64,000 bases of DNA, taken from Elusimicrobiota bacterium (GTDB lineage: Bacteria; Elusimicrobiota; Elusimicrobia; Elusimicrobiales; UBA9959). Numbering within the stretch: the first letter of the stretch is position 1; each line of letters starts with the position of its first letter. A program made the position numbers and the translations under genes. This document shows, piece by piece, positions 5,335 to 25,401 of this stretch. The notes beneath the pieces were generated by a model. That model was not told the origin of the DNA. It worked only from the letters and a program-made list of their open reading frames with translations, and did no database searches. Location: NCBI GenBank assembly GCA_003450815.1, contig DMES01000077.1, positions 17,681-81,680 on the forward strand. The letters are read 5' to 3'.

Positions 5335-5340
5335 GCGGAG

Positions 5341-5368
5341 GACACAAGTCACAGGTTGCAAGTTACAA
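5341..5368. repeat. 4 tandem heptamers (GACACAA GTCACAG GTTGCAA GTTACAA)
   Basis: Read directly in the parA-parB spacer. GTCACAR family. Confidence 0.8.
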
Positions 5369-5394
5369 TTGAAGAAATTTTTCAGGAGAACAAT

Positions 5395-6264: not shown

Positions 6265-6265
6265 C

Positions 6266-9454: not shown

Positions 9455-10783
9455 ATGGACAAATTCTTCTTTTTGTTTTCCGGCGCGGCCCTTGGCGCCG
9501 TTGCCGCTTACTTCTTTGCCAGGTACCGGGGCGCGTCCGGAAAAGAAGTTGAGAGCATGAAGGCCCGCCTGGAATCCCTTAACGCCGATAACGCAAAGCT
9601 GCAGGAGCGTTCCTCGCAGCTCGGCAACGAAACAGTGAAACTTAACGGCGAACTTAAAAGCGAACGGGGCCTGTGCCAGCAGCTGAACGCCGACTACGCC
9701 AAAACCCGCCGTGAACTGGAACTGCTTTCCGGAGAGCTGGACAATCAGAAGCGGGAGATGCTCGCGCAGTTTAAAAATATCGCCAGTGAAATACTAGAGG
9801 ATAAGAGCAGAAGCTTCACCGATATAAATAAACAGAAAATCGACGAAATACTTGTTCCGCTAAAGGAGCGGCTGACCAATTTTGAGGGGGAGGTGCGTAA
9901 ACTTAATATTGACGGCGCGAGCCGCGCGGCGGACCTTAAATCCGAACTCTTGAATTTAAAGACCCTGAATCAGCAGATCACCGAAGACGCGGAGAACCTC
10001 ACCAAAGCGCTGAAAGGCGAATCAAAGGTGCAGGGGAACTGGGGAGAAATACTGCTGGATAAGATACTTGAGCGCTCCGGCCTGGTTGAAGGCGAGCATT
10101 ATATGCGTCAGGAAAAGCATACGCGCGAAGAAGAGGGGGAGAAGAAAAGATACTTTCCTGATGTTGTGGTATATCTTCCAGAGGGCCGGCAAGTGGTTGT
10201 TGACTCCAAAGTGTCGCTCACGGCCTATGTGGAATATTCCTCGGCTAAGGACGAAGAGACCGCGGCCAAAGCTCTTAAGGCCCATTTTTTATCCATTAAG
10301 AGCCATATAGATGAACTGTCAGACAAAGATTACGGCTCTATGCCCGGTTTGAAGTCTCCGGACCAGGTGCTTATGTATGTTCCGGTGGAGCCAGCGTTCT
10401 ATCTGGCCATGAAGAGCGATGCGGAGCTTTGGGAGTACGCTCTTGAAAAAAAGGTCATTCTGGTAACCAATTCAACACTTCTCGCCACGCTGCGCCTGAT
10501 AGAAAGCATCTGGCGGCAGGACAAGCAGGGGCGGAATGCCGTTGAGATCGCCAAAAAAGCCGGAGAGCTTTACGATAAGATAGTGTCTTTCGTTGAAGTG
10601 ATGAACGAGATAGGTTCCCGCCTGGGCCAGCTAAACCGGTCTTATGACGACGCCATGAAAAAAATGAAGGACGGCCGCGACAACATGCTGGTTAAAGCCG
10701 AAAAAATACGGGAGCTGGGCGCCAAAGCCTCAAAAGAGCTGCCGCGCGAAATTAAAGACCTTATAGAAAAAGACCCCGCTTGA
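9455..10783 (+). CDS. rmuC: DNA recombination protein RmuC
   Basis: N-terminal TM segment, a long coiled-coil region and the conserved RmuC core GNWGEILLDKILERSGL. Confidence 0.85.
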   Translation: MDKFFFLFSGAALGAVAAYFFARYRGASGKEVESMKARLESLNADNAKLQERSSQLGNETVKLNGELKSERGLCQQLNADYAKTRRELELLSGELDNQKREMLAQFKNIASEILEDKSRSFTDINKQKIDEILVPLKERLTNFEGEVRKLNIDGASRAADLKSELLNLKTLNQQITEDAENLTKALKGESKVQGNWGEILLDKILERSGLVEGEHYMRQEKHTREEEGEKKRYFPDVVVYLPEGRQVVVDSKVSLTAYVEYSSAKDEETAAKALKAHFLSIKSHIDELSDKDYGSMPGLKSPDQVLMYVPVEPAFYLAMKSDAELWEYALEKKVILVTNSTLLATLRLIESIWRQDKQGRNAVEIAKKAGELYDKIVSFVEVMNEIGSRLGQLNRSYDDAMKKMKDGRDNMLVKAEKIRELGAKASKELPREIKDLIEKDPA

Positions 10784-11229: not shown

Positions 11230-11266
11230 AGCTTAATTGCAATTTTCGGGTTTATTTATCTATATT

Positions 11267-14200
11267 ATGGATATGCCAGCCTCCGGCAATAATAAAACCG
11301 CCGCCCCGGCGCTTAAAAGCGACACGGAACTTGAATTTCCGCACGCTCTTTTAATAAGCGCCTCGGCCGGCTCGGGCAAAACATACACTCTCGCTCAGCG
11401 TTATGTCCAGTTTCTGCTTTCCGAAAATATCCCCGGCCACAACCTTGAAAATATTCTTGCTGTTACATTCACGAATAACGCCGCCAAAGAAATGAAAACC
11501 CGCATTTTGGAGTGGCTGAAAGAACTAGCACTAAACCCCGATTCCCCTAAAATGAACGAGACACTGCAGCTGGTGAACATAAGCCGCCCAGAGGCCCAAA
11601 AGAAAGCAACCGCGCTGGTAGAGAGCATAATAGACAATTATTCAGACTTTCATGTACAGACCATAGACAGTTTCATGACGCGCGTGATGACCGCCTCTGT
11701 GAACGAATTGGACCTTCCGCTGAACCCGGAAATCACCATGGCCTACAACGACCTTATTGAACTGGCCCTGTATTCCATGTTCTCGCACCTGGGGCATGAC
11801 GCTAACCTTAAAATCAATATAGATACTTTCCTTAATATTCTGCCGGAAAAAGGCGCGTATCCCTGGAATCCGGTCCTGCGCATAAGGGACCATTTTGCGG
11901 CTTTTCTTAACGAGGAAGGAAAAACCAAGGGCGGGATACTTTCCGATAACTCTGGCGCTCCCGGCAAGGCGCGAGAGAAACTCTGGGTGGATATCCTTAA
12001 ATCCTGCGGTGAGCTTAAGAAGCAAATCAAGCCCGAGCTTATGAAAGGCAGCCTGGCCGCCGCTATTGAAAATAAAGATATCAACGCCTTTATTTCAAAT
12101 TACAACTTTGAAAACTGGCTCCTAAACGGCCAGAAAAAGAGCCGCAAAACCGGCGAATTTCCCATCACACCGGAAACAAAAAAAGACTTGGAATATTTAA
12201 GCGAACTGGTGCGGCAATTGCTTATGGCGGACGCGTTAAGCTGGTTTCACCCGTATACTTTCATTTATTCCCGCTTCAAGGCCGAACTTGAGCGCGTAAA
12301 ACGCGGCAAAACAGACATCATCCACATAAACGATGTGAATAAAAAGCTTTCCACATACATAAACGCCAATGTCGCGCCTGACATTTACCTTAAACTGGGA
12401 GAACGGATAAACCATTACCTTATAGATGAGTTCCAGGACACCAATAAACTTCAGTGGGACAATTTCAAACCGCTCATAGAAGAATCCCTTGCCGGCGCTG
12501 GCTCGCTTTTTATGGTGGGCGATATCAAGCAGGCTATTTTCATGTTCCGCAACGCCGACTATAAGATAATGCGGGATCTGCTTACCTATGCCGAGGGCAA
12601 AAAGGATCATTGTGATAATTTAGAGCTTGCTTCGGTGGGCGGCAGGCTTGAACTTGTGAATCTGCCCGTTAACTACCGCAGCGGCGGAAAAATACTGGAG
12701 TATGTGAACGCCGTCTTCAAACATGACCTTAAAAACCGCAAAGAACTTATAGGAGAGGATATAACCGAACTTACCTCCTACGAGCAGGCCCCGCGAAAAG
12801 AGCGCGCAGCCGCCGGTTTTGTCCGGACTATTTCCCTTGAAGCCGATAATATAACCGAAGACCAGGTGGAGCGCGCTGAACTGCTGAAGATAATAGAAAG
12901 CGCCCGAAAACGCTATCCTTTAAATGAAATAGCCATTCTGGCCGCCAAAAACAAGCGCATAAAGCCTGTGGTGGAATGGCTTACCGCAGCAAATATTCCC
13001 GTGGCCTCGCTCAGCTCTCTGGACATACGGGAACGCCGGGTAACTGCAGAGCTGCTGGCGCTGTTAAAATTCCTGGAAACCCCGGCTGACGATTCCGCCT
13101 TTGTCGCTTTTATAACCGGCGAGATCTTCGGCAAGGCCGCAGGCGTTGCGCGCACGGAACTGCTGGAATTCATCTTTCAGGCACATACAGGTCACAAGTC
13201 ACAAGTCACAAGTCACAAGTTGCAGGGAATCTCTACCTCCTGCCAAAACATTTTATATACACAGTTCAAGGATCACCCTAAATATTCCGGATATTGGGAT
13301 CAATATTTTGACGAGCTTTTCCGCAAAACGGGATACTTGCCGCTATACGAGCTGTGCGCGCTTATTTATTCAAAGTTCGGGCTGTTTAAAAACTTTCCGG
13401 ATGAAGCCGCTTTTTTGTCTAAGTTCCTTAACATAGTTTCCAAAGCCCAGACGGACGGGATAACCGGCGTGCGAGATTTCCTGGACTTCGCCGAAGGGGA
13501 CGACGAAACCCGCGGAGCTGCTTTCTCCATAATCCTGCCGGATTATCTTGACGCGGCGCGTATTATGACTTTCCACAAAGCCAAGGGTCTCGGGTTCTCG
13601 GTGGTGATAAACCTAATCTATGAAGACCGGGACGCGGATGACTCCATGTACTTTGATGAAACTCCTGAAGGGATAAAGGTATATAAAATAACAAAGAGCG
13701 CTGCCGCCCAGCTTCCGGTGTTGGGCCGGATCTACAACAATAAAAAAACCGATGAGAGCGTGCAGAACCTCAACCTGTTGTATGTTATTGAAACCCGCGC
13801 CAAAGAAGAGCTTTACAACCTGGTAATCCGCAAAAAACGCAAGGAACCGTCCAAAACCGTCAAGTCCACCGACCTTTTTGACAATTACCAGTCCTCTGAA
13901 AAGGTGGCAACCACCTTTTCAGAGTCAACTACCACCGTCAAAAAGGTAGCTGATACCTTTTTGAAGCCGCTGGAGCCGGAACCGGTTTATAGCGCCAATT
14001 ATGATATCGCTACCGCTATTCCTACGCTTAACGCTTATGCCGGAGCAAAAGAAGGCGAGCTTTGCCACGATATTTTGGCCCGGATAGTGACAAGTCACAA
14101 GTCGGACACTTCTTCTGACTCTACACTCTCAACTTTACACTCTACACTATCATCACTCTATGCAGCTTGCGCCGCTTCGTATCCAATCAGATTTAATGAG

Positions 14201-14518
14201 GCTAAAATAATTAAAACCCTGTTCGCTTTCCTGACCATGCCGGAAGTTAAGCCCTGGTTTGAGCCCAAAGAAGGCCGCGTTATTAAAACAGAGGCTGAAT
14301 TTGCGGATAAAACTGGCAATATCTCCCGCGTGGACCGGCTTATAATAGACAAAGACACCGTCACAATAATAGATTTCAAAACCGGCGCGGAAGCCACGGA
14401 AAAATACGCCAAGCAGCTAAAACGCTATCTGGCGCTCGCCGCAGAAATATATAAACTGCCCGCAAAAGGCGTTATAGCGTATGTGGATTTGAGGAAGATT
14501 ATAGATATTCGCGCTTGA
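11267..14518 (+). CDS. UvrD/Rep-type helicase with C-terminal PD-(D/E)xK nuclease (AddA-like)
   Basis: Motif I SASAGSGKTYTL, motif II YLIDEFQDTN, and C-terminal nuclease RVDRLIID..IIDFKTG. The ORF track starts at TTG 11237; ATG 11267 is preferred. Confidence 0.85.
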   Translation: MDMPASGNNKTAAPALKSDTELEFPHALLISASAGSGKTYTLAQRYVQFLLSENIPGHNLENILAVTFTNNAAKEMKTRILEWLKELALNPDSPKMNETLQLVNISRPEAQKKATALVESIIDNYSDFHVQTIDSFMTRVMTASVNELDLPLNPEITMAYNDLIELALYSMFSHLGHDANLKINIDTFLNILPEKGAYPWNPVLRIRDHFAAFLNEEGKTKGGILSDNSGAPGKAREKLWVDILKSCGELKKQIKPELMKGSLAAAIENKDINAFISNYNFENWLLNGQKKSRKTGEFPITPETKKDLEYLSELVRQLLMADALSWFHPYTFIYSRFKAELERVKRGKTDIIHINDVNKKLSTYINANVAPDIYLKLGERINHYLIDEFQDTNKLQWDNFKPLIEESLAGAGSLFMVGDIKQAIFMFRNADYKIMRDLLTYAEGKKDHCDNLELASVGGRLELVNLPVNYRSGGKILEYVNAVFKHDLKNRKELIGEDITELTSYEQAPRKERAAAGFVRTISLEADNITEDQVERAELLKIIESARKRYPLNEIAILAAKNKRIKPVVEWLTAANIPVASLSSLDIRERRVTAELLALLKFLETPADDSAFVAFITGEIFGKAAGVARTELLEFIFQAHTGHKSQVTSHKLQGISTSCQNILYTQFKDHPKYSGYWDQYFDELFRKTGYLPLYELCALIYSKFGLFKNFPDEAAFLSKFLNIVSKAQTDGITGVRDFLDFAEGDDETRGAAFSIILPDYLDAARIMTFHKAKGLGFSVVINLIYEDRDADDSMYFDETPEGIKVYKITKSAAAQLPVLGRIYNNKKTDESVQNLNLLYVIETRAKEELYNLVIRKKRKEPSKTVKSTDLFDNYQSSEKVATTFSESTTTVKKVADTFLKPLEPEPVYSANYDIATAIPTLNAYAGAKEGELCHDILARIVTSHKSDTSSDSTLSTLHSTLSSLYAACAASYPIRFNEAKIIKTLFAFLTMPEVKPWFEPKEGRVIKTEAEFADKTGNISRVDRLIIDKDTVTIIDFKTGAEATEKYAKQLKRYLALAAEIYKLPAKGVIAYVDLRKIIDIRA
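13184..13225. repeat. 6 tandem heptamers (4 perfect GTCACAA) in frame inside the addA-like CDS
   Basis: 42 nt = 14 codons, encoding HTGHKSQVTSHKLQ. Confidence 0.85.
14088..14157. repeat. 7-nt-period block (GTGACAA GTCACAA ... TACACTC TCAACTT TACACTC TACACTA) inside the addA-like CDS
   Basis: Read directly. Encodes the low-complexity VTSHKSDTSSDSTLSTLHSTLSSL. Confidence 0.75.
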
Positions 14519-14725: not shown

Positions 14726-14824
14726 AAAAGCAACTGACGAAATCACCAAATATTTACTAAAAAAATAAAACATAAAATTGCCTTCTACTGAGCTTTTCAG
14801 GCTAAAGGGTGAACTTAGGCAAAG

Positions 14825-14833
14825 TGTTATAAT
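14825..14833 (+). promoter_or_regulatory. extended -10 element TGTTATAAT
   Basis: 29 nt upstream of the helicase ATG 14862. Confidence 0.45.
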
Positions 14834-14861
14834 TTAAAAGGGATTTCTATTTGGAATAATC

Positions 14862-17800
14862 ATGCCAAAGCATTCGGGGTCTGCAAAGTTTACAGCAACA
14901 GGGGTTTTCAACGGCCTGAAAAGTTTTAGCGAACTTGAGGCCAGGATTTCCGCTCTGCCCTCCGAAAAAGAGCGTGGGGACGCTTTTGAGGTTTTTGCGG
15001 AGGCTTACCTAGCCACACAGCCTATATGCCAGGCGAAGGAAGTTTGGCCCCAGACCAGTGCCCCAAGCGGGCTGTTAAAACGCCTTGGCCTGCCGGTTTC
15101 CCGCGACATGGGGACGGACGGGCTTGTTGTACTAAAAGACGGTCGCATTGCTTCATACCAGGCTAAATTCTATACCAGCCGCCCAAGCCTTACCTGGGGT
15201 TTGCTGTCAACCTTTTTTGCCATCTCCGACCGGGTTTCACACACCATAATTTTCACAAATTCCGACAGCCTTGCTTCTACTATAGAGCAGAGGCAGAACT
15301 TTATCGCTATTCGCGGGATTGATTTAGACCGGCTTGCCCCCACTGACTTTTCGGTGATTGAAGAATGGATGAAAGGTGAGCCGGTAGCCAGGGTAATCCC
15401 AAAGCCGCGCCCGCACCAGGAGAAGGCTTTAAATGAACTGCTGCCAGCTTTGAAATCCTCTGACCGGGCCACTGTAATAATGGCCTGCGGCACCGGCAAA
15501 ACTCTTTTATCCCTCTGGGCTGCTGAGCGGCTGAAAGCTAAAAACGTTCTGGTGTTAGTGCCATCGCTCGCACTTATACAGCAGACCCTACACGGCTGGC
15601 TGGCCGCTACGGGCTGGGACAACCTTGCTTACCTCTGCGTCTGCTCGGACCTAACAATAACGGATGGTGTGGACGAACTGGTCGTTAAAAAGTCCGACCT
15701 TGATTTTGAGGTTACAACCGCCCCTGCCGAGGTTAAACGCTTTCTTGACAGTGTATTTGATGGGGTTAAAGTGGTTTTCTCAACCTATATGTCTGCCAGC
15801 GTGGTCGGTAAGGCACTTGAGGGCCGAAACATCTTTGACTTGGGCATATTCGACGAGGCACATAAAACCGCTGGCCGCGAGGGCAAAACCTATGCGTTCG
15901 CCCTCTCTGATAAAAATCTCCCGCTAAAAAAACGCGTATTCATGACCGCCACCCCCAGGCATTACAATGTTTTAAAGCGGGACAAAGAAGGTGACGCGAA
16001 ACTGGTCTATTCCATGGACGTGCCGGAATCTTATGGTACCGTAGTCCATAAACTCCCCTTTGCTGAGGCGGCCCGCGCCGGAATTATCTGTCGTTACAAG
16101 GTAATAATTTCCGTAGTAACCTCCGAGATGGTCGGGCAGGAACTTTTAAGGCGGGGCAAAGTCCTTGTAGCGGGTGACGAAATTCACGCCCAGCAGGTGG
16201 CAAACCAGCTGGCACTCGCCGCCGCCGTGGAGAAGCACGGAGTCGGCAAAATAATCACCTTCCATAAAAACATCAAATCCGCGCAGTCCTTTACCGACGC
16301 CGGTCCGGAAGGCATAGCCAATCATCTAAAAGATTTCTCCGTCTTCCACGTAAACGGCTCAATGCCCTCCGCCGAACGCGAAAAGCTGATGGGAGAATTT
16401 AAAACCTCCAAGCACGGCCTTGTCTCCAACGCCAAATGTCTGACCGAAGGCGTAGACGTTCCGGCAGTGGATATGGTCGCCTTCCTAAGCCCCAAACGCA
16501 GCACGGTGGACATCGTACAGGCAACCGGCCGCGCCATGCGTAAAGCCCCCAAAAAAGAATTCGGTTACATCTTGGTTCCGCTCTATCTGGAAATTAAAAA
16601 TAATGAAGCCATAGAAGAAGCCGTCCGCCGAGGCAACTTTGAAGAAGTCTGGGACGTCCTAGCCGCCCTACAGGAACAGGACGAAGTCCTAGCCGACATA
16701 ATCCGCCAAATGCGTCAGGAAAAAGGCCGCACCAAAGGCTACAACGACGTCCCCTTCCGTGAACAAATAGAAATCCTCGGCCCACAAATTTTACTAGAAG
16801 ACTTAAAAAAATCAATCATAATCTCCTGTGTTGACAGGCTTGCCGCTAATTGGGACGAGCGCTTCGGAGAATTGGTCGCATATAAAGCCAAATATAGCGA
16901 TTGTAATGTGCCAAGGGGATGGCCTAAAAATCCGAGTTTGGCTAGATGGGTTGCAATGCAGCGAAGTCTTAAGATTAAAGGACGACTATTAAAGGAGCGA
17001 GTAAATCAGCTAACTGCGATTGGGTTTGACTGGGATCCGCAAGCGTCAGCTTGGGAAGATAGCTTTCGCGCCCTTGAGCAGTATAAGGCTAAACATGGTG
17101 ATTGCGATGTGCCAAATAGATGGATTGAAAATCCGAGTTTGGCTAGATGGGTTGGAATGCAGCGAAGTCTTAAGATTAAAGGACGACTATTAAAGGAGCG
17201 AGTAAATCAGCTAACTGCGATTGGGTTTAACTGGGATCCGCAAGCGTCAGCTTGGGAAGAAGGCTTTTGTGCCCTTGAGCAGTATAAAGCTAAACATGGT
17301 GATTGTAATGTTTCACATGCGTGGCCCCAAAATTTAGGTTTAGCCACGTGGGTTTCAACGCAGCGAACAGCCAAGATTAAGGAGCAATTATCCAAAGATA
17401 GAGAAAATCGTCTGACAAAGATTGGTTTTGAATGGAACAGGTTGGTGTCAGCCTGGGAAGAAAATTTTCATGCCCTCGAAGACTATCAAGGTACGTATGG
17501 CGATTGTAATGTACCAAAGATGTGGCCTGAGAATCCGAATTTGGCCACCTGGGTTGTAATGCAACGAAGTCTTAAAATTAAAGGGCAACTATCAAAGGAG
17601 CGAGTAAATCGGTTAACTGCGATTAAGTTTGATTGGGATCCGCTAGGGTCAGTTTGGGAAGAAAGTTTCCGCGTCCTTGAGCAGTATCAGGCTAAACATG
17701 GTGATTGCAATGTGTCACAGGAATGGCCTGAAAATCCAAGTTTGGGTAGGTGGGTTTCAAGACAACGAGAAGCCAAGATTAATGGGCAGCTATCAAAGGA

Positions 17801-18323
17801 GCGAGTAAATCGGTTAACTGCGCTTAGGTTTGACTGGGATCCGCAGGTGTCAACCTGGGAAAACAGTTTTTGCGCTCTTGAGAAGTATAAAAATAAACAT
17901 GGTGATTGCAATGTGCCACAGGGATGGACTGAACCTCCGGGTTTGGGTAGGTGGGTTTCGAATCAACGACGCTATAAGATTAAAGGGAAAATATCAAAGG
18001 AACGAGTAAATCGGCTAATCGCGATTGGATTTGACTGGGATCCGATGCTCTCGGCCTGGGAAAAAAGTTTTCGCGCCCTTGCACAGTATAAAGCTACACA
18101 TGGTGATTGCAATGTGCCACAGGATCGGCCTGAAGATCCGAGTTTGGGTAGATGGGTTGCAACGCAACGAAAAGTTAAGATTAAAGGGCAAATATCAAAG
18201 GAACGAGTAAGCCGGCTAACTGCGCTTGGGTTTGAATGGCATAGGACGAAGGAACGCCTGCCCCGCAACAGGAGTATAGGTGACAAAAACCAAGCAAAGC
18301 TGCTAAAAACGGATGAACATTAA
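14862..18323 (+). CDS. fusion protein: restriction-endonuclease-like N-terminus + SF2 (DEAH, Res-subunit-like) helicase + 7 helicase-associated (HA) repeats
   Basis: N-terminus GDAFEVFAEAYL..GTDGLV..YQAKF (PD-(D/E)xK-like). Helicase motifs MACGTGKT, DEAH, TATP and QATGRAMR. C-terminal 7 x 67-aa W(E)xxF..YK..HGDCNVP..W..NP.L..WV..QR repeats. Confidence 0.85.
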   Translation: MPKHSGSAKFTATGVFNGLKSFSELEARISALPSEKERGDAFEVFAEAYLATQPICQAKEVWPQTSAPSGLLKRLGLPVSRDMGTDGLVVLKDGRIASYQAKFYTSRPSLTWGLLSTFFAISDRVSHTIIFTNSDSLASTIEQRQNFIAIRGIDLDRLAPTDFSVIEEWMKGEPVARVIPKPRPHQEKALNELLPALKSSDRATVIMACGTGKTLLSLWAAERLKAKNVLVLVPSLALIQQTLHGWLAATGWDNLAYLCVCSDLTITDGVDELVVKKSDLDFEVTTAPAEVKRFLDSVFDGVKVVFSTYMSASVVGKALEGRNIFDLGIFDEAHKTAGREGKTYAFALSDKNLPLKKRVFMTATPRHYNVLKRDKEGDAKLVYSMDVPESYGTVVHKLPFAEAARAGIICRYKVIISVVTSEMVGQELLRRGKVLVAGDEIHAQQVANQLALAAAVEKHGVGKIITFHKNIKSAQSFTDAGPEGIANHLKDFSVFHVNGSMPSAEREKLMGEFKTSKHGLVSNAKCLTEGVDVPAVDMVAFLSPKRSTVDIVQATGRAMRKAPKKEFGYILVPLYLEIKNNEAIEEAVRRGNFEEVWDVLAALQEQDEVLADIIRQMRQEKGRTKGYNDVPFREQIEILGPQILLEDLKKSIIISCVDRLAANWDERFGELVAYKAKYSDCNVPRGWPKNPSLARWVAMQRSLKIKGRLLKERVNQLTAIGFDWDPQASAWEDSFRALEQYKAKHGDCDVPNRWIENPSLARWVGMQRSLKIKGRLLKERVNQLTAIGFNWDPQASAWEEGFCALEQYKAKHGDCNVSHAWPQNLGLATWVSTQRTAKIKEQLSKDRENRLTKIGFEWNRLVSAWEENFHALEDYQGTYGDCNVPKMWPENPNLATWVVMQRSLKIKGQLSKERVNRLTAIKFDWDPLGSVWEESFRVLEQYQAKHGDCNVSQEWPENPSLGRWVSRQREAKINGQLSKERVNRLTALRFDWDPQVSTWENSFCALEKYKNKHGDCNVPQGWTEPPGLGRWVSNQRRYKIKGKISKERVNRLIAIGFDWDPMLSAWEKSFRALAQYKATHGDCNVPQDRPEDPSLGRWVATQRKVKIKGQISKERVSRLTALGFEWHRTKERLPRNRSIGDKNQAKLLKTDEH
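16851..18257 (+). repeat. 7 tandem 201-nt coding repeats (HA domains)
   Basis: The conserved Trp codons are spaced exactly 201 nt apart. 16927-17059 vs 17128-17260 differ at only 2 of 133 nt. Confidence 0.9.
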
Positions 18324-19011
18324 AGAAGAAGAATTAGGACACTGGTGGGGAGAGTTTCTTGTTTCCTCACGTAGGTACGATATTTTAATTCGCAATTTAT
18401 ATGTTGCCGGGAAGAATAAACAGATAAATGAATTTGATGGGGTCGGGATTAAATTTCTAGGCGTAAAACTTGGAGACAATGTCTTATTAGAAGATATCGA
18501 ATATAAATATGCTAAAACAGGGAAAGAAGATCGGGCAGAGAAGGCGTTGGGAAAGCAAATAGAAAAAATAAAAATGTTTAGTGGGTTTAATTCAATAATC
18601 GGGGCATCAAATTCTGTACTTGCTGTTAAAGGATTACCACATTGTTTTGGTGCTCTTAAAGTGGGCGCCCCGAATGAAAACTGTTGTAGTGGTTTTTTTG
18701 TTAGAGAGCCTACTAAGTTTATATATAACTCAACACACCGTGATAATATCCTGAAGGTCACTCGGCAGGTTTATGGGACAGCTGAGGTTATAGGCATGCC
18801 ATGCGTATTTATTAAATGTAAAGATAAGAATTGTCGAACCTATTATGGGTTTTCAGCGAGAGTGCCACTCCCAATCTCATTTTATGAAAATGGACACTCG
18901 GAGTATTGTCCTGAGTCAAAAAGCAAAAGTAATAGGTATGTTTTTGTAAGCAAAGGATTCTCATACAATAACAGAACTTACTACACTGCGCGAGCAAATA
19001 AGTTTATTTAA
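18313..19011 (+). CDS. hypothetical protein (232 aa), start overlaps the helicase stop
   Basis: ATG 18313 lies 11 nt inside the end of the helicase ORF. AT-rich. No motif recognised; several Cys (CC, C..C). Confidence 0.6.
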   Translation: MNIKEEELGHWWGEFLVSSRRYDILIRNLYVAGKNKQINEFDGVGIKFLGVKLGDNVLLEDIEYKYAKTGKEDRAEKALGKQIEKIKMFSGFNSIIGASNSVLAVKGLPHCFGALKVGAPNENCCSGFFVREPTKFIYNSTHRDNILKVTRQVYGTAEVIGMPCVFIKCKDKNCRTYYGFSARVPLPISFYENGHSEYCPESKSKSNRYVFVSKGFSYNNRTYYTARANKFI

Positions 19012-19120
19012 GTGTGGCAAATCAGATGTCGGAACGGTTCTTAATGATTGTGTGGGGAGGCCCAGGCGACGTTGTTGAAAGATTGAAATTTTGTTTTAGA
19101 TCGTTTAAACTTTTGATGCT

Positions 19121-19618
19121 ATGAAATATCGTGATTTATCAAAAGAAGAGTTTGACGCTATTGTAACTGGAGAACTTACTCACCATGCGATATGGTTGGA
19201 AAGTGAACTGGTGGAAATTATTTCCAACTATTTTCTTGGTGACTCGTATAAAAAAGCGGATTTTAACAGATTGTTATTTAGGCGGGATGGTTTAACCTTT
19301 CAGGATAAAATTGAAATAGTTAGGGGAATGCTCCCGCTATTTAAAAAGTCTGCTGTTGTTGAGCATCTTAAAAAGTTACTACTTAAGATTGAGGAGTTGA
19401 AAGATTTTCGTAATGCATTTGCGCACGGAATTGATGCTCAATCGGATAAAAACGACAAGCTTTGTTTAAAAATTGAACTTATTAGTCGGTCTGGTAAAAC
19501 TAAGACCATAGAGGTTACTCCGGAAACTCATGAAAAACACATGGAAAGCCTTGATAAGCTTTTTAATGAGGTTCACCAGGTTTGCCTTGAACTTAAACAT
19601 ATGGGGGGAGGGGCTTAA
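19121..19618 (+). CDS. hypothetical protein with Rx4H motif (candidate HEPN-like)
   Basis: FRNAFAHG = R-N-x3-H, in a residue composition compatible with an all-helical 165-aa protein (not predicted). The assignment rests on this motif alone. Confidence 0.5.
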   Translation: MKYRDLSKEEFDAIVTGELTHHAIWLESELVEIISNYFLGDSYKKADFNRLLFRRDGLTFQDKIEIVRGMLPLFKKSAVVEHLKKLLLKIEELKDFRNAFAHGIDAQSDKNDKLCLKIELISRSGKTKTIEVTPETHEKHMESLDKLFNEVHQVCLELKHMGGGA

Positions 19619-19636
19619 ATTTTGGCGTTTTCAACG

Positions 19637-19669
19637 TGACAGACGGTTGTCGCTTTGGTCTGCTATACT
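19637..19669 (+). promoter_or_regulatory. palindrome TGACAGACGGTTGTCG + N11 + TATACT (copy 2)
   Basis: About 85 nt upstream of dinD. Confidence 0.65.
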
Positions 19670-19752
19670 GTTTTCAAAGCAAAAAACGGCGGGAGCTTTT
19701 ACATTATGACGGTTCTTGAGGTCGGCTTGGAGAAAAACGGAGGGAAGAAATC

Positions 19753-20613
19753 ATGGCCAAGGAAATAGCGAAAACAACCGGCTGGCATATATCGCCTTTT
19801 GAGTGGATCAAACGCACAAATGAAGCGAATAATGAATATTGGGAGAGCCGCGACCTGGCGGAGATTTTGGAATACACGCAATACCGGAACTTCGAGGCTG
19901 TAATCCAGAAGGCTAAGCTGGCGTGTTTCAATAGCGGGCATCGTATTGAGGATCATTTTGCTGATGTCAGCAAAATGATCGAGATTGGGAAAGGCGGCAG
20001 GCGCGAGATCGATGTCATATTGTTATCTCGATACGCCTGTTACCTGGTTATTCAAAACGCCGATCCCAAAAAAGAAATAGTGGCGCAGGGTCAAACCTAC
20101 TTTGCCGTCCAGACACGGCGGCAAGAAATTGCGGACGAACATATTGAGGAAAATCGACGCCTGATATTGCGCGACGAAATACGTCACCACAACGCGCAAC
20201 TGGCCGATGCGGCCAAGGGCGCGGGCGTCATCGAACCCATAGACTACGCTATCTTTCAAAATCATGGGTATATGGGGCTTTATGGCGGGTTGAAACAGGA
20301 AGACATTCACCGTCGTAAAGGCTTGAAAGAAAGCCAAAAGATTTTGGACCACATGGGCAGCACGGAACTGGCGGCGAACCTGTTTCGCGCAACTCAGGCG
20401 GAGGAGAAGCTGCGCCGGGACGAGGTCAAGGGGAAAGACGCCGCGAACCGGACACATCGTGAGGTCGGCGCGAAGGTGCGGCAGACCATCAAGGAGTTGG
20501 GTGGCACGATGCCCGAAGAATTACCGGTGGCGGAAAGCATCAAAAGAATTGAGTCCGAACAGCGCAAACAACTCGGCAAGGCTGAGCCGCCCGCAAAACA
20601 GAAGGACGAGTAA
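19753..20613 (+). CDS. dinD: DNA-damage-inducible protein D family
   Basis: Extended similarity to remembered E. coli DinD: FE.IKR.NE...E.W.ARDLA..L.Y...RNF..VI.KA..AC.NSGH...DHF......I..G.G..RE.....LSRYACYL..QN.DP.K...A..QTYFAVQTR. Confidence 0.85.
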   Translation: MAKEIAKTTGWHISPFEWIKRTNEANNEYWESRDLAEILEYTQYRNFEAVIQKAKLACFNSGHRIEDHFADVSKMIEIGKGGRREIDVILLSRYACYLVIQNADPKKEIVAQGQTYFAVQTRRQEIADEHIEENRRLILRDEIRHHNAQLADAAKGAGVIEPIDYAIFQNHGYMGLYGGLKQEDIHRRKGLKESQKILDHMGSTELAANLFRATQAEEKLRRDEVKGKDAANRTHREVGAKVRQTIKELGGTMPEELPVAESIKRIESEQRKQLGKAEPPAKQKDE

Positions 20614-20742: not shown

Positions 20743-21585
20743 ATGGATAAATCTCTGGCTGTTTTTGAGGGGAATAGAATACGCAGGCATTACGACGAAA
20801 AGACGGAAAACTGGTATTTCTCCGTGGTGGATATATTGCAGGTGTTGATTCAACAGCCGTATTACCAGGCGGCCAGAAATTACTGGAAGGTCTTGAAAAA
20901 CAGGTTGAATAAGGAAGGGAGTGAGTCGGTTACAAAATGTAACCGACTGAAATTGCAAGCGGCAGACGGCAAATACTATTTAACAGATGTCGCAAATCCT
21001 GAAACGCTGTTTCGCCTTATACAATCCGTGCCAAGTCCAAAGGCTGAACCGATAAAACTCTGGCTGGCGAAAGTGGGACATGAGCGCTTGCAGGACATGG
21101 CGGATCCCGCAAAGTCGCTGGACAGGGCCCGCCAGTACTGGCAGCAGCACGGCAGGAGCCAGAAATGGATCCAACAGCGCATGATGGGGCAGGAAACCCG
21201 GAACAAACTGACCGACTACTGGAAAAACCACGAAATTAAAAAAGAAGAAGAATACGCGATATTAACCAACATTATCCATCAGGAATGGTCTGATATAACG
21301 GTAAAGGAACACAAAAACATTAAAGGTTTAAAGACCCAGAACCTGCGCGACCACATGAGCGAAGCGGAACTGATTTTTACCGCTTTGGCCGAGCTATCCA
21401 CCCGCCAGATAGCCGAAACCATGTCGGCCACCGGCATGGCTGAAAATACCATCGCCGGAAAAAAAGGCGGCGGCATTGCCAAAAAAGCGCGGCTGGACCT
21501 GGAAGAAAAAACCGGGAAAAAAGTGGTGAGCGGGAATAATTATTTGCCGCCCAAGAACAATAAACAAATAGAAAAGAAACAATGA
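20743..21585 (+). CDS. Bro-N domain protein (phage antirepressor-like N-terminus)
   Basis: LAVFEGNRIRRHYDEKTENWYFSVVDILQVL fits the Bro-N pattern (recalled). Confidence 0.7.
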   Translation: MDKSLAVFEGNRIRRHYDEKTENWYFSVVDILQVLIQQPYYQAARNYWKVLKNRLNKEGSESVTKCNRLKLQAADGKYYLTDVANPETLFRLIQSVPSPKAEPIKLWLAKVGHERLQDMADPAKSLDRARQYWQQHGRSQKWIQQRMMGQETRNKLTDYWKNHEIKKEEEYAILTNIIHQEWSDITVKEHKNIKGLKTQNLRDHMSEAELIFTALAELSTRQIAETMSATGMAENTIAGKKGGGIAKKARLDLEEKTGKKVVSGNNYLPPKNNKQIEKKQ

Positions 21586-22322
21586 ATGATACAGAAGAAT
21601 CTCTTTTCGGCCCGGATTGGGATACTGAGCGCGCCGGACGGCTTTGCCCGGCCGGGGTGGAGATACGCGCCGATTCCTCCGAGCGGGCTTCCGGCGTGCC
21701 CGAGCTGCTGGCGGAGCTGGGGGCTTCCGTGGTAAACGGCCCTCTGGCGGCCGGGGACTATCTGGTTTGCGGCAGAACACTTGTTGAAAGAAAAACCGTG
21801 GCTGATTTCACGCAATCGCTTTACGCGGGCCGTCTCTTTGACCAGATAAAAAGGATGAAAGACTCCTCAGAGGAGGTTTTGCTTGTTATAGAGGGTGGGA
21901 AATGGTATTTCTCTCAAGTGCGGCCAAAAGCGGTGCGCATGGCTTTTCTCTCTGTGCTGGTTTCATGGAAAGTGCCCGTGGTATTTACCAAAGATTGCGC
22001 GGGCACAGCCGCGTTGCTTGTAGAGCTTGGAGAGAAAGCGCTGCGGTGCAAAAAGATTTTTTACACCAATAGGCTGTTTCACAGAAACAGGGCAAAAAGC
22101 CTTTGTTCTATAGAGGATTCCAGGATGAGGCTTTTATCCGAAATCCCCGGAGTCGGCCCGAAGCTGGCTGTCAAACTTATGGAGCGGTTCCAGACGGTGC
22201 GCGCTCTTGCCGAAGCTTCCGAAGGCGACATATCCTCCGTTTATGGCGTAGGAAAACAAAAAGCTGCCAAAATATTGTGGACCCTGAGGGAGCAAGTGAC
22301 ATTGTACAAGAGCGCTGGCTGA
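21582..22322 (+). CDS. ERCC4 (XPF/Mus81-type) nuclease with C-terminal helix-hairpin-helix
   Basis: GDYLV..ERKTVADF signature, then IPGVGPKLA and VYGVGKQKA HhH motifs. ATGA overlap with the Bro-N gene. Confidence 0.8.
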   Translation: MNDTEESLFGPDWDTERAGRLCPAGVEIRADSSERASGVPELLAELGASVVNGPLAAGDYLVCGRTLVERKTVADFTQSLYAGRLFDQIKRMKDSSEEVLLVIEGGKWYFSQVRPKAVRMAFLSVLVSWKVPVVFTKDCAGTAALLVELGEKALRCKKIFYTNRLFHRNRAKSLCSIEDSRMRLLSEIPGVGPKLAVKLMERFQTVRALAEASEGDISSVYGVGKQKAAKILWTLREQVTLYKSAG

Positions 22323-22391: not shown

Positions 22392-23444
22392 ATGAAGATA
22401 GTGAAATTTGATGTTTTGTCCGCGACGGAAGAAAATTGGGATAGTTACTTCCGTCATCTTGACGAAATCCGTCAGGAGTGTGGCCAGCAAGACCCGCAAT
22501 TGCCGCGGGAACAAAGAAAAGCCATAACCGTTTCATCCCATTCGGACCCGAATGTGCGCTTATATGTTTTTTTAATGTTTCCCGAGGAAACCTCCGGCTG
22601 CGCGGCCGGCTATGCGGAGGCAATTGTGGAGACTCCGCAGTCACCCACATATAATCTCAATAAGCATACAGGCAAGCTAAGCCTCTCCGTTTCCCAAAAA
22701 CACAGGAGACAGGGACTGGCAACCTTATTGCTGAAGCATGTTATTGAAGAACTGGCCGCAAAAGAACCGGCGGTAACCGAGCTGCTCACTTCTGCAATTC
22801 TGGAATCGGGAAAATATTTCATGAACCTGCTGACAGGGAACTTCTCGCTTGAGAAGCCTGAAAACAGGCTTTACATCAAAGATGTGGACTGGGACATGAT
22901 CAATTTCTGGGTAGAGGACGGCATGCACAAAAATCCCGGCACAACGATAAAAACGGTGGAGATTATGCCGCAGGAAGATATTGAGGAGTACAGTTTGGTT
23001 TACAACGAAACCGCAAACCAGCAGACTTTCGGGAACATGAAGGTGGATATAAACTATACCCCGGATGAAATAAGGTGCGACGAGCGGAAAGCGCTGGAAC
23101 AGGGAATTTCGCATATCACAATATTTTTAAAGGAAAACAACGGCGCGATAAGCGGGCTGACTGAATTTTTTCATATTAAGGAACCTGGGCAAAAAGTGAC
23201 GCAGAACCTGACCGGCGTAAGGGAACAATACCGGGGGAGGGGGCTGGGAAAACTGCTTAGGGCCTGTATGCTGCTGCATATAAGAAAGTTTCCGGGCGTG
23301 GAATATGTGGTAACGGGTAACTCCGACACTAACGCGCCGATGCACGCCATAAATCTGAAACTCGGTTTTAAAAAGCATCTGCCTGTAAAACTGTACAAAT
23401 TGAAAATCCGGGGGCAACAGGGGCCTCGGCTATTTCCGGTCTAA
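22392..23444 (+). CDS. tandem GNAT-family N-acetyltransferase
   Basis: Two acetyl-CoA-site motifs: RRQGLATLLLKH and YRGRGLGKLLRA. Confidence 0.7.
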   Translation: MKIVKFDVLSATEENWDSYFRHLDEIRQECGQQDPQLPREQRKAITVSSHSDPNVRLYVFLMFPEETSGCAAGYAEAIVETPQSPTYNLNKHTGKLSLSVSQKHRRQGLATLLLKHVIEELAAKEPAVTELLTSAILESGKYFMNLLTGNFSLEKPENRLYIKDVDWDMINFWVEDGMHKNPGTTIKTVEIMPQEDIEEYSLVYNETANQQTFGNMKVDINYTPDEIRCDERKALEQGISHITIFLKENNGAISGLTEFFHIKEPGQKVTQNLTGVREQYRGRGLGKLLRACMLLHIRKFPGVEYVVTGNSDTNAPMHAINLKLGFKKHLPVKLYKLKIRGQQGPRLFPV

Positions 23445-23448
23445 AATC

Positions 23449-23485
23449 TGGTAAAAATTTTTGCGCCAAAAATTTTTAATGAAAC
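23449..23485. promoter_or_regulatory. AT-rich palindrome element (copy 2), TGGTAAAAATTTTTGCGCCAAAAATTTTTAATGAAAC
   Basis: 36/37 identical to 7341-7377. Includes the recQ ATG. Confidence 0.75.
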
Positions 23486-25401
23486 CCGAAGAAATTTTAA
23501 AAAAACAGTGGGGATATGACTCTTTCAAGCCGCTTCAGAAAGAGGCTATTGAAGCCGCTTTGGCCGGGCGCGACAGTCTTGTGGTTCTGCCTACAGGCGG
23601 CGGCAAAAGCCTGTGCTACCAGCTTCCGGCCGCCATGGGCGGCAAGGGACTGGTGCTGGTTGTGTCGCCGCTTATAGCCCTTATGGACGATCAGGTTGCG
23701 GCGGCGCGCGAGGCGGGCCTGATGGCCGATGCCGTACACTCAAACCTTCAGGCCGACAAGCGCGACGACACCTACTGGCGTTTGTCCGAGGGGGTAACCG
23801 AGCTGCTCTATGTCAGCCCGGAGCGGCTGCTCGCGGGCGACCTGCTTAAGTATATTTCCGGCCGCGTTATACTTGCCGCCGTGGATGAGGCCCACTGCGT
23901 TTCGCACTGGGGCCACGAATTCAGGCCGGAGTACCGCAGGCTTACTGAAGTTCTGGACCAGTTTCCCAAAGCCGCCCGTATGGCTTTAACCGCCACCGCC
24001 ACACCCGAAGTGCAGGAAGACATCTGCGCACAGCTGGGCCTGCGCTCACCGTTACGGCTAATAGGCCACCCCGACCGGCCCAACCTTGTTTACCGCGCGC
24101 TCCCTCGCCGCGACCAGCTCGCGCAGGTGCTTGAAATAGCGCGCCGCTATGCCGGTTCGGGGGGTATTGTGTACGCGCAAACCCGCAAAGATGTGGAACG
24201 CCTGGCGGAGGGACTTAAAAAAGAGGGTATTTCATGCGCGCCATACCACGCCGGGCTTAACGCCGGCGACAGGCGGCGCGCACAGGACGACTTTGTAAAC
24301 GAAAGGCTGGACGTTATTGTGGCCACTATCGCCTTCGGCATGGGCATAGACCGCTCCAATGTGCGCTATGTCGCGCACGCCAACACCCCGCGCTCAGTGG
24401 AACACTATCAGCAGGAATCGGGCCGGGCGGGCCGCGACGGCCTTCCAGCCGAGTGCCTGCTTCTGTTCGCGGCTTCGGATCTGGCGCTGCACCGCTACCT
24501 GGCTAAAAAAGACGTTGATCTGCCGCCCGAAAGGGAACGCGCCCTTGAACGCCAGCTGCGCGAAATAGGCCGCTACGCCGTATCTCCCGTGTGCCGCCAC
24601 CGCTTGCTCACCGAACATTTTGGCGCGCCGTATCCTCCGGCTGAAACCGTCTTGAAAGAATGTGTTTTTGAAGAGGCTTTCTGTAAAGAGGGTGATGGGG
24701 ATATTTACCAGGAGCCCGATAGGGCGCAGGGGTGCGGCGCCTGCGATGTCTGCCTTGGCGAGACAAAAAGTCTGCCGGCCGAAGAGGCCCTTCTGACCGC
24801 GAAAAAAGCTTTAAGCGCGGCCTGGCGCGCCGAAGGCCGCTATGGCACCGGCTATGTGGTAAATTTACTGCTTGGCCGAGTAAACGACCGCATGACCGCC
24901 AATGGCCATGACCAGCTGAAAGTTTTCGGCCTGCTCAAAGATTCCGGCGAAGCCGCCGTCCGCTCCTGGATAGACCAGCTTATAGTGCAGGATTTTCTTG
25001 AGGTTACGGAAGAGGGAGAATATCCCCTGCTGCGCATCACGGAAGCCGGACGGGGCCTTTGTAACGGCCGGGGCGCGGTACGGCTGGGCATGCCCGTCCC
25101 AGCGAGAGTCAAAGGCAGGAAGAAGGCCAAAGCCCTGAAAGGTAAAGCCGCCTGCGGCCTTGGCGTAGACCAGGAACTTTTTGAGCGCCTGCGCTCTTTG
25201 CGCCGCGCGCTTGCCGACAAGGCGGGCATACCGCCCTATGTTATCTTCCACGACAGCGTGCTTATAGAAATGTCCGCCTCAAAGCCTGAAACACTGGACG
25301 ATTTGCGCGGCATAAAAGGCATAGGCGAGAAAAAATTGGAAAAATACGGCCGCCTGTTCCTTGACGCCATATCCGGCCGCCTGAAGCAGCCGCAGGTTTA
25401 A
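23479..25401 (+). CDS. recQ: ATP-dependent DNA helicase RecQ
   Basis: PTGGGKSLCYQLPA, DEAHCVSHWGHEFRPEY, a Zn-binding Cys cluster and a C-terminal HRDC-like region. Confidence 0.95.
   Translation: MKPEEILKKQWGYDSFKPLQKEAIEAALAGRDSLVVLPTGGGKSLCYQLPAAMGGKGLVLVVSPLIALMDDQVAAAREAGLMADAVHSNLQADKRDDTYWRLSEGVTELLYVSPERLLAGDLLKYISGRVILAAVDEAHCVSHWGHEFRPEYRRLTEVLDQFPKAARMALTATATPEVQEDICAQLGLRSPLRLIGHPDRPNLVYRALPRRDQLAQVLEIARRYAGSGGIVYAQTRKDVERLAEGLKKEGISCAPYHAGLNAGDRRRAQDDFVNERLDVIVATIAFGMGIDRSNVRYVAHANTPRSVEHYQQESGRAGRDGLPAECLLLFAASDLALHRYLAKKDVDLPPERERALERQLREIGRYAVSPVCRHRLLTEHFGAPYPPAETVLKECVFEEAFCKEGDGDIYQEPDRAQGCGACDVCLGETKSLPAEEALLTAKKALSAAWRAEGRYGTGYVVNLLLGRVNDRMTANGHDQLKVFGLLKDSGEAAVRSWIDQLIVQDFLEVTEEGEYPLLRITEAGRGLCNGRGAVRLGMPVPARVKGRKKAKALKGKAACGLGVDQELFERLRSLRRALADKAGIPPYVIFHDSVLIEMSASKPETLDDLRGIKGIGEKKLEKYGRLFLDAISGRLKQPQV

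Follow-up and report, generated by a model that had tools for sequence, protein, structure and literature searches.

A candidate defence locus in an Elusimicrobia genome: a nuclease-helicase with HA repeats and a variable slot at the 3' end of its gene

Three adjacent genes and their base composition

The locus described here lies in a 64-kb stretch of DNA from an Elusimicrobia metagenome-assembled genome (the window, that is, the whole stretch that was analysed) and comprises three open reading frames (ORFs) of the same strand: a large gene encoding a nuclease-helicase, referred to as HEL, followed by two small ones, ORF2 and ORF3. The three proteins (HAH32703-HAH32705) are each annotated as hypothetical in the database. 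An earlier reading of the same DNA (the original prediction) had singled them out as a candidate defence or repair module, and the three ORFs, all the motifs quoted for them and the overlap between the HEL stop and the ORF2 start were recovered at the same coordinates. The features are the following, with protein lengths in amino acids (aa).

14759-14861, plus strand: leader and promoter region travelling with the HEL gene, where DNA homology to close relatives begins
14862-18323, plus strand: HEL, 1153 aa, ATG start; Mrr nuclease, superfamily 2 (SF2) translocase and HA array
14925-15356, plus strand: Mrr-family nuclease domain of HEL (aa ~22-165; E43, D82, D86, Q100, K102), the alignment with LlaBIII starting at aa 22
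15402-16724, plus strand: SF2 helicase-like motor of HEL (aa 181-621), motifs I, II, III and VI intact
16851-18257, plus strand: seven tandem HA (PF03457) repeats of HEL, 67 aa each (aa 664-1132)
18243-19700, plus strand: segment of low GC content (~0.37-0.38) with the last ~27 codons of HEL, ORF2 and ORF3
18313-19011, plus strand: ORF2, 232 aa, ATG start; predicted PD-(D/E)xK-fold nuclease with a C-terminal CCHC motif
19121-19618, plus strand: ORF3, 165 aa, ATG start; HEPN-like, with RNxxxHG at nucleotides (nt) 19409-19429

The ATG of ORF2 at 18313 overlaps the end of HEL (stop codon TAA, 18321-18323) by 11 nt, and ORF2 is separated from ORF3 by a gap of 109 nt that holds a promoter-like site. 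Another promoter-like site, which is a consensus match only, precedes HEL at 14833-14860 (TTTAAA-16-AATAAT with TG). The GC contents of ORF2 and ORF3 are 0.366 and 0.365, respectively, for a window mean of 0.497. The region from 18.3 to 19.7 kb had been judged AT-richer by eye, and the computation agrees, as hardly any other 1.5-kb stretch of the window is poorer in GC: the GC content of 18250-19750 is 0.382 and just 0.16% of the window's 1500-nt stretches lie lower. The drop starts where homology to the close HEL relatives stops (~18242), and the segment 18243-19700 is probably foreign cargo in the variable slot described below.

No direct or inverted repeats flanking the low-GC block were found around 18150-19850, and a transposon-like insertion of the block was discarded, neither a target-site duplication nor terminal inverted repeats being present in the same interval. 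Also discarded were a tRNA integration site (no tRNA in the window) and an RNA partner such as a type III antitoxin or a riboswitch (no Rfam match in 8-27 kb).

The 3' end of the HEL gene is a variable slot

Eight close relatives of HEL, designated L001, L036 and L038-L043 in our numbering of loci, were compared with the window at the DNA level. Homology starts at 14759 (L038), at 14815-14820 (L039, L043, L001) or at 14853 (L036, L041), never further upstream, and ends at ~18242, about 80 nt before the HEL stop, the flanks never aligning. HEL is thus a separately mobile gene, homology being confined to the gene and its leader, and its 3' end is a variable slot. The genes found in this position are listed below; identities of the listed relatives to HEL were measured over aa 1-673, and it is for relatives of 71-89% identity that homology at the DNA level covers only the gene.

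L039, 88% identical: OLD-family nuclease (AAA_15 + TOPRIM) with a 32-nt overlap, then a large serine recombinase
L040, 85% identical: a genuine HEPN_RiboL-PSP protein (53 bits; gathering score 28.4)
L001, 83% identical: ORF2 homologue
L042, 71% identical: HEPN protein of the pEK499_p136 type (24.9 bits, gathering score 26.6), then Schlafen/AlbA_2
L047, 56% identical: DUF2971 protein

The GC content of the downstream gene and that of the helicase gene are 0.39 versus 0.52 in L039 and L040, 0.40 versus 0.45 in L042 and 0.37 versus 0.52 in the window. L039 (3775-8150) is the closest full-length helicase relative, with 8 HA repeats, and its serine recombinase points to carriage by a mobile element.

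Scanning the JGI metagenome contigs with HEL aa 1-673 yielded at least 467 loci of the family, the best 80 relatives of these 467 being 49-90% identical over the whole nuclease-helicase part. HEL further matches 806 plasmid records, mainly from Streptomyces (417 records) and Pseudomonas aeruginosa, which are annotated merely as 'DEAD/DEAH box helicase'. PADLOC v2 contains no model dedicated to the nuclease-helicase-HA architecture, and no paper characterising it was found in the searchable literature.

Clustering of the ORFs around 72 non-redundant loci among the 80 best relatives reveals no conserved neighbour on either side of HEL. When the 80 loci are screened with hidden Markov models (HMMs), the ORF2 family is recovered from the window and L001 only, the ORF3 family from the window only. 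Beyond the window the HEL-ORF2 pair occurs in one other lineage (L001-L003), and L001 has HEL and ORF2 without ORF3. Conversely, the ORF3 family was looked at in 13 species-representative genomes (including Acidithiobacillus, Paraburkholderia, Acidobacteria, Nitrospirae, Bacteroidota and a Nanoarchaeote) and several metagenome contigs; no neighbour is conserved among these loci, and neither HEL nor ORF2 stands beside ORF3 in any of the ~20 other contexts. Altogether 80 HEL, ~20 ORF3-family and 6 ORF2-family contexts contain no second instance of the trio. The original prediction had taken the three genes as one module and made conserved synteny its test; as the trio is syntenic nowhere else in these contexts, the three-gene module is refuted on those terms.

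The encoded proteins and their surroundings

In the nuclease-motor half of HEL we located the motifs GDAFE (aa 39-43), GTDG (aa 84-87), YQAKF (aa 99-103), MACGTGKT (aa 207-214), DEAH (aa 331-334), TATP (aa 362-365) and QATGRAMR (aa 553-560), and Pfam assigns Mrr_cat_2 to aa 60-159 (24 bits against a gathering score of 22), ResIII/DEAD to aa 181-366 and Helicase_C to aa 453-561. The top PADLOC match is REase_MTase_IIG (1.6e-85, aa 33-620), a Type IIG/Type I restriction endonuclease-methyltransferase model that is covered only over positions 17-653 of 1646. The best PDB matches are LlaBIII (4xqk, E 9.5e-64, continuous over aa 22-621) and LlaGI (5ffj, 3.1e-53). The large protein, proposed earlier to be a nuclease-helicase, accordingly has the Pfam domains of one, and its nearest characterised relatives are anti-phage restriction enzymes and not a well-characterised housekeeping family. 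By its sequence, HEL is homologous to the nuclease and motor portion of restriction enzymes that translocate. Its residues E43, D82, D86, Q100 and K102 correspond to E38, D74, D78, Q92 and K94 of LlaGI, which have been studied by mutagenesis, D74, D78 and K94 being essential for cleavage (PMC2790908). HEL possesses both the nuclease elements of Type ISP enzymes (motif I E43, D82-M-G-T-D86, Q100-A-K102) and their SF2 helicase-like ATPase motor, and since all five LlaGI residues are kept it looks catalytically competent. The Pfam and NCBIfam scans revealed no gamma-class adenine methyltransferase family and no target-recognition domain, only HA repeats following after aa 664, and neighbour clustering of the family loci revealed no methylase conserved near HEL. 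For these reasons HEL cannot be a classical restriction-modification (R-M) enzyme.

The seven HA repeats originally counted in the 1153-aa ORF are confirmed by Pfam, which reports seven HA stretches (PF03457, 1e-139), and Tandem Repeats Finder describes the region 16881-18239 as 6.8 copies of a 201-nt period with 76% matches. Pairwise identity among the repeats is 52-76%. Almost all of the 80 relatives examined have HA arrays, with copy numbers of 1-13. A nuclear magnetic resonance (NMR) structure of an HA domain has been published which, according to the title of the paper, indicates DNA binding (Mills et al. 2013); by analogy with this work and with TtrA, a helicase to which we return below, the HA repeats of HEL presumably provide DNA binding. 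TALE-like repeat-variable residues were looked for and rejected, as the entropy of 452 repeats is distributed among numerous surface columns and not concentrated in one diresidue.

Two relatives (L097, 988-4335, and L103, 6995-11089) have a single HA repeat, after which comes another kind of tandem repeat of ~56 aa, in 6-11 copies and with the consensus ..GLL.E..F.K.SGL..I..YRKKGLIKPVGYA...AGV..YYHP.QI.ELKKKLGITLE.T., which suggests that the C-terminal array of the family is an exchangeable module. The contigs of L036, L038 and L041, whose helicases are near-identical, break off at the first HA repeat or shortly behind it, with called proteins of 664-733 aa; these endings most likely reflect assembly breakage at the 201-nt repeats, so that HA copy numbers taken from short-read assemblies are uncertain.

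ORF2 has no sequence-profile match in the Pfam, PADLOC, NCBIfam and PHROG scans, nor any match in the phage and plasmid collections (the same holds for ORF3) or in the viral and JGI metagenome contigs; its nuclease domain, searched by itself, likewise finds nothing among the plasmids. Only 8 relatives turned up when 1.84 billion cluster representatives were searched exhaustively with HMMER, and another search added one homologue of 65% identity, making ~9 clusters altogether. In their alignment W12, R27, E40, D42, E63, Q82, F92, F166, C169, C174, G179, P187, H195, S196 and C199 are invariant and K65 is kept in 8 of 9 sequences, which defines a D..ExK nuclease signature and a C-x4-C-x20-H-x3-C motif. 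The AlphaFold (AF2) model (predicted local distance difference test, pLDDT, 81; predicted TM-score 0.81) shows an alpha-beta-beta-beta-alpha-beta core (helix 3-20, strands 24-32, 38-48 and 57-65, helix 72-89, strand 94-99), in which the second strand carries D42 and the third both E63 and K65. The best Foldseek match is SPO1766 (3dnx, E 2.6e-4, probability 1.0), deposited as a protein of unknown function; the PD-(D/E)xK nuclease PaqCI (8em1) follows with a probability of 0.98, and Cas4, the R2 RLE domain, Card1/Can2, BamHI and MspJI match more weakly. Both the core topology of the model and its structural similarity to members are those of the PD-(D/E)xK superfamily. The earlier statement that ORF2 has no recognisable motif has to be abandoned, as it contains the D..ExK core and the CCHC motif.

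Homologues of ORF2 are found in four kinds of context:

Window and L001-L003: after the helicase
L027 (809-3323) and L028: after a SMODS nucleotidyltransferase and an S_4TM effector, a CBASS-like pair
L023-L025: after a 318-aa HEPN_Cthe2314-like protein, with a 41-nt gap
L022: before a GmrSD_N gene

In L023 the HEPN_Cthe2314-like gene (5110-6066; RNLLVH, 24 bits against a gathering score of 27.1) is followed by the ORF2 homologue at 6108-6803. The modelled fold predicts a DNase activity for ORF2, a rare protein whose neighbours are defence genes of various kinds.

The ORF3 family comprises ~258 clusters of proteins of ~160 aa; it lacks a Pfam annotation, and its occurrence across phyla is patchy. 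The motif FRNAFAHG of ORF3 occupies aa 96-103, and an alignment of 58 homologues shows R97, N98, H102 and G103 to be invariant, along with an N-terminal FD..TGELTH block, K63, E65, E91, G125, P134 and H137. The Rx4-6H signature with a polar residue after the arginine, on which the assignment to HEPN RNases had been founded, is therefore far more than a chance match. Of the 58 family members, 37 match HEPN_RiboL-PSP (PF18735) below threshold, with a best E of 7.8e-5 (~0.005 after correction for 58 tests), and further sub-threshold matches are to the HEPN families MAE_28990, LA2681, pEK499_p136, Swt1 and Cthe2314 (listed as PF18737, PF18733, PF18736, PF18731 and PF18730); all of these are centred on the motif helix. 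The AlphaFold (AF2) model (pLDDT 90) has helices at 8-39, 45-53, 60-69, 77-102 and 134-160, the motif ending the helix 77-102, after which come a three-stranded insertion and the final helix. A review of the superfamily places the motif at the end of helix-3 of a four-helix up-down core (PMC3710099), and the predicted secondary structure of ORF3 fits this description. A PDB sequence search with the ORF3 profile returned noise only, and the alignment, searched again in a database of 5.8 billion proteins, recovered close members and no bridge to annotated HEPN families. The HEPN-like character proposed for ORF3 is upheld by the motif; the recurrent sub-threshold profiles and the predicted secondary structure are compatible with it, whereas Foldseek found no HEPN structure. 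We consider ORF3 most likely to be a HEPN-type protein, membership of the superfamily being not formally proven.

In BFVD the ORF3 model matches only A0A4Y5TZQ9, an unnamed 159-aa viral protein (TM-score 0.63, probability 1.0, E 0.09), and a viral contig (L037, 514-972; IMG/VR UViG_3300048848_000254) encodes a homologue of 55% identity, so that the family is now and then present in (pro)phages. Neighbours of ORF3 homologues include TIR_2 + DUF2971, HNH, Gp49/HTH, NERD, AAA_15 + DUF3696, Abi_C, tyrosine integrases and Phd/ParE; their surroundings are defence islands and mobile elements. In Paraburkholderia sp. IW21 (L031, 485-9211) the homologue lies within a run of small ORFs, over 20 in number and all of one strand, of which most have no family and two are Abi_C (HEPN) proteins; the run adjoins an imuB/dnaE2-type mutagenesis cassette. 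As ORF3 homologues often stand in such runs, integron cassettes were considered; the idea was rejected, since 28 attC-like RYYYAAC..GTTRRRY pairs were counted for ~29 expected, none of them placed at gene ends in this crude scan.

Directly downstream of the trio are two tandem Bro-N genes:

19753-20613, plus strand: Bro-N protein, 286 aa, PADLOC PDC-S13
20743-21585, plus strand: Bro-N protein, 280 aa, PADLOC PDC-S13

Both match Pfam Bro-N and, over their full length, PADLOC PDC-S13 (2.7e-116 and 1.6e-117), and these two candidates lend substance to the defence-like neighbourhood that had been proposed; no paper mentioning PDC-S13 was found. The two proteins have diverged, one is annotated as DinD, and both match PHROG families of unknown function. 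Further downstream are an ERCC4 + HhH (XPF/Mus81-type) nuclease (21582-22322), whose start overlaps the end of the second Bro-N gene by 4 nt, then a double-GNAT protein (22392-23444) and a complete RecQ with RQC and HRDC (23461-25401), the RecQ region having a GC content (0.59-0.63) well above the window mean (0.50). Upstream are RmuC (9455-10783) and an AddA-like protein of 1093 aa combining a UvrD helicase with PD-(D/E)xK (11237-14518); the ORFs checked from 7.3 to 25.9 kb include no visible AddB-like partner. The PADLOC matches of RmuC (RTasRmuC), of the UvrD protein (RTasHel/GajB) and of RecQ (DpdF) were dismissed as generic family matches that are no evidence for DRT or Dpd systems.

Interpretation and comparison with known systems

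Many small proteins downstream of HEL relatives were seen to carry an RNxxxH motif, which was then counted formally over the non-redundant HEL loci. It is present in 10 of 77 same-strand ORFs at positions +1 to +3, belonging to 9 of the 53 loci that have any downstream ORF, versus 7 of 424 ORFs elsewhere (Fisher p = 3.4e-5); in 500 residue-shuffled control trials the count averaged 1.0 and never exceeded 5. With the certified HEPN protein of L040 (RGDVVH) included, a HEPN-like gene closely follows HEL at approximately one locus in five. Aligning the ORF3 profile with the other RNxxxH proteins (hhalign) gave motif-level matches only, with probabilities not exceeding 15%; in the absence of detectable homology among these proteins, the association of HEL with HEPN holds at the level of the superfamily. 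The combination of a nuclease-helicase with a HEPN-like protein, which the original prediction had likened to that of anti-phage systems, therefore recurs statistically across the HEL family, and the ORF3 family itself never recurs there. Fusions of HEPN domains to HEL relatives, as a Rosetta-stone link, were sought and none was found.

Our preferred reading, which we hold to be reasonably probable, is that the locus is a piece of a defence island made up of separately mobile genes, in which HEL is the anchor and its 3' end a variable slot for effectors. HEL would bind DNA through its HA array, translocate on double-stranded DNA with ATP and cut by means of its Mrr nuclease, which would amount to a Type ISP-like action without methylation-based self-marking; the cue distinguishing self from non-self might, speculatively, be DNA modification (as in Mrr), DNA ends or DNA structure. 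ORF2, which appears to be translationally coupled to HEL, would probably serve as an accessory DNase, and ORF3 is probably a metal-independent RNase. Because small RNxxxH proteins are enriched directly downstream of the HEL family, the most likely logic for ORF3 would be that of PrrC/EcoprrI, namely an RNA-cutting second line that arrests growth once the DNA-targeting enzyme has been blocked or overwhelmed. A bolder version, in which the HA array is a modular DNA-recognition device that replaces the methylase and target-recognition half of Type ISP enzymes, giving a methylation-independent translocating enzyme, and in which interchangeable fail-safe effectors in the 3' slot (HEPN RNases, OLD or PD-(D/E)xK nucleases) are kept silent by the helicase until a phage inhibits it, appears to us very unlikely; if true, it would represent a widespread, undescribed two-layer defence architecture.

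Several observations weigh against a defence island anchored by HEL. Repair-type genes flank HEL, with RmuC and the UvrD-nuclease upstream and ERCC4 and RecQ downstream, and HA arrays are also present in TtrA, a putative conjugation helicase. A restriction-type nuclease lacking a methylase would need some other means of sparing its own DNA. With regard to ORF3, no Pfam HEPN match of its family reaches the gathering score and the Foldseek comparison of its model with PDB gave no HEPN structure (best E ~1). The RNxxxH proteins downstream of HEL are not detectably homologous to one another or to ORF3, and their enrichment could mark an insertion hotspot for defence genes and not a functional coupling. 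As HEPN-like genes stand downstream at no more than about a fifth of the helicase loci, and as ORF2 and the 109-nt spacer with its promoter-like site separate ORF3 from HEL in the window, a functional link between HEL and ORF3 is no more than putative.

Among the alternatives, a role of HEL in repair, recombination or DNA transfer, as a TtrA-like or RecQ/AddA-associated helicase-nuclease of a repair cluster with ORF2 and ORF3 as passengers, is unlikely in our judgement. Its main argument is the company that HEL keeps in the window (RmuC, the UvrD + PD-(D/E)xK helicase-nuclease, the ERCC4-HhH nuclease and RecQ), to which may be added that tandem HA domains are a hallmark of TtrA, that the matching plasmid records include the 417 of Streptomyces and that one relative (L065) adjoins a UvrC-like gene, as read by eye. 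However, these repair neighbours are not conserved around any relative, relatives of 85-89% identity being found in unrelated contexts; the best-scoring characterised relatives are restriction enzymes and the Mrr nuclease is intact, and the neighbours that do recur are of defence type (OLD, HEPN, Schlafen, DUF2971, serine recombinase, PDC-S13). Distinctly unlikely is the proposal that ORF2 and ORF3 form a unit of their own, either a nuclease-HEPN pair or one resembling a toxin-antitoxin system, which was inserted at the 3' end of HEL and acts independently of it. The two genes do share an identical low GC content, in a block that starts ~80 nt before the HEL stop, and ORF2 homologues are found 41 nt after the HEPN-like 318-aa gene in L023-L025 as well as behind unrelated systems such as SMODS + S_4TM; yet no ORF3-family locus has an ORF2 homologue, L001 has ORF2 without a same-strand HEPN gene, a 109-nt spacer with a promoter-like site lies between the two genes, and neither terminal repeats nor a target-site duplication were found.

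The least probable of the readings weighed here is one dedicated three-gene defence system, with HEL sensing and translocating, ORF2 as its obligate partner and ORF3 as the HEPN effector, working only together. The genes are closely spaced on one strand, with the 11-nt overlap of the HEL stop and the ORF2 start, the unusual GC content common to ORF2 and ORF3 (0.366 and 0.365) suggests their joint arrival, and another ORF2 homologue directly follows a HEPN_Cthe2314-like protein (L023). All the same, the trio occurs nowhere else in the contexts screened and L001 combines HEL with ORF2 without ORF3; ~20 ORF3-family contexts are without HEL or ORF2, the 80 HEL relatives all lack ORF3 and, with the exception of L001, ORF2 as well, and relatives that are 85-89% identical to HEL (aa 1-673) have other genes in the slot.

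If HEL is indeed a methylase-less relative of Type ISP enzymes, the avoidance of self-DNA and the targets of the HA array become testable questions. The variable 3' slot is a natural experiment in effector swapping and adds a case to the theme of restriction combined with HEPN proteins, and the families of ORF2 and ORF3 provide catalogues of defence genes with two small, uncharacterised families of predicted nucleases. We regard the locus as a candidate of moderate interest for experimental defence screens.

Among known systems, the Type ISP enzymes LlaGI and LlaBIII resemble HEL in the succession of an Mrr nuclease and an SF2 motor, and HEL keeps every catalytic and ATPase motif of that half. 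The motor of LlaGI and LlaBIII moves along double-stranded DNA, and the cut follows the collision of two enzymes (PMC3553950). HEL differs from them in that it has neither a methyltransferase nor a target-recognition domain, its C-terminal half being an HA array. In this latter respect it is like TtrA, a putative conjugation or telomere helicase of Streptomyces linear replicons in which an SF2 DEAD/DEAH helicase is likewise followed by tandem HA domains. TtrA is, however, subtelomeric and tied to conjugal transfer, whereas HEL comes from an Elusimicrobia metagenome-assembled genome and no telomere or conjugation genes were found near it among the window genes scanned. The Hachiman system, in which a helicase (HamB) is described as controlling a separate PD-(D/E)xK nuclease (HamA) (PMC12278908), offers a parallel to HEL and ORF2, and a Hachiman chain appears at rank 33 of the Foldseek matches of ORF2 (E 0.35); protein families and gene order are different, HEL has a nuclease of its own, and there is no PADLOC match to Hachiman.

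On the side of ORF3, a link to R-M operons is described for at least 16 HEPN clades, PrrC being the paradigm; these always accompany the nuclease, helicase or ATPase and not the methylase (PMC3710099). As with PrrC/EcoprrI, some loci of the HEL family, L040 included, have a small HEPN-type gene beside a restriction-type nuclease-helicase. PrrC possesses an ABC-ATPase regulatory domain, whereas ORF3 is a single domain of 165 aa with no ATPase; and unlike that of PrrC, the linkage of HEL to HEPN genes is facultative (~19% of loci), these genes having no detectable mutual similarity. With the RiboL-PSP type of HEPN proteins (PF18735) ORF3 has in common the RNxxxH motif at the end of a long helix, and a genuine PF18735 protein occupies the same slot in L040. 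The ORF3 family nevertheless scores at most ~21 bits, under the 28.4-bit gathering score of PF18735, and is set apart from it and from Abi-type HEPN proteins by its own FD..TGELTH block and by the beta insertion at residues 104-132. What the locus adds to these systems is a relative of Type ISP enzymes that has an HA array and no methylase and whose effector slot is swappable, being occupied here by a rare PD-(D/E)xK protein and a HEPN-like one; current concepts are thereby extended and not changed.

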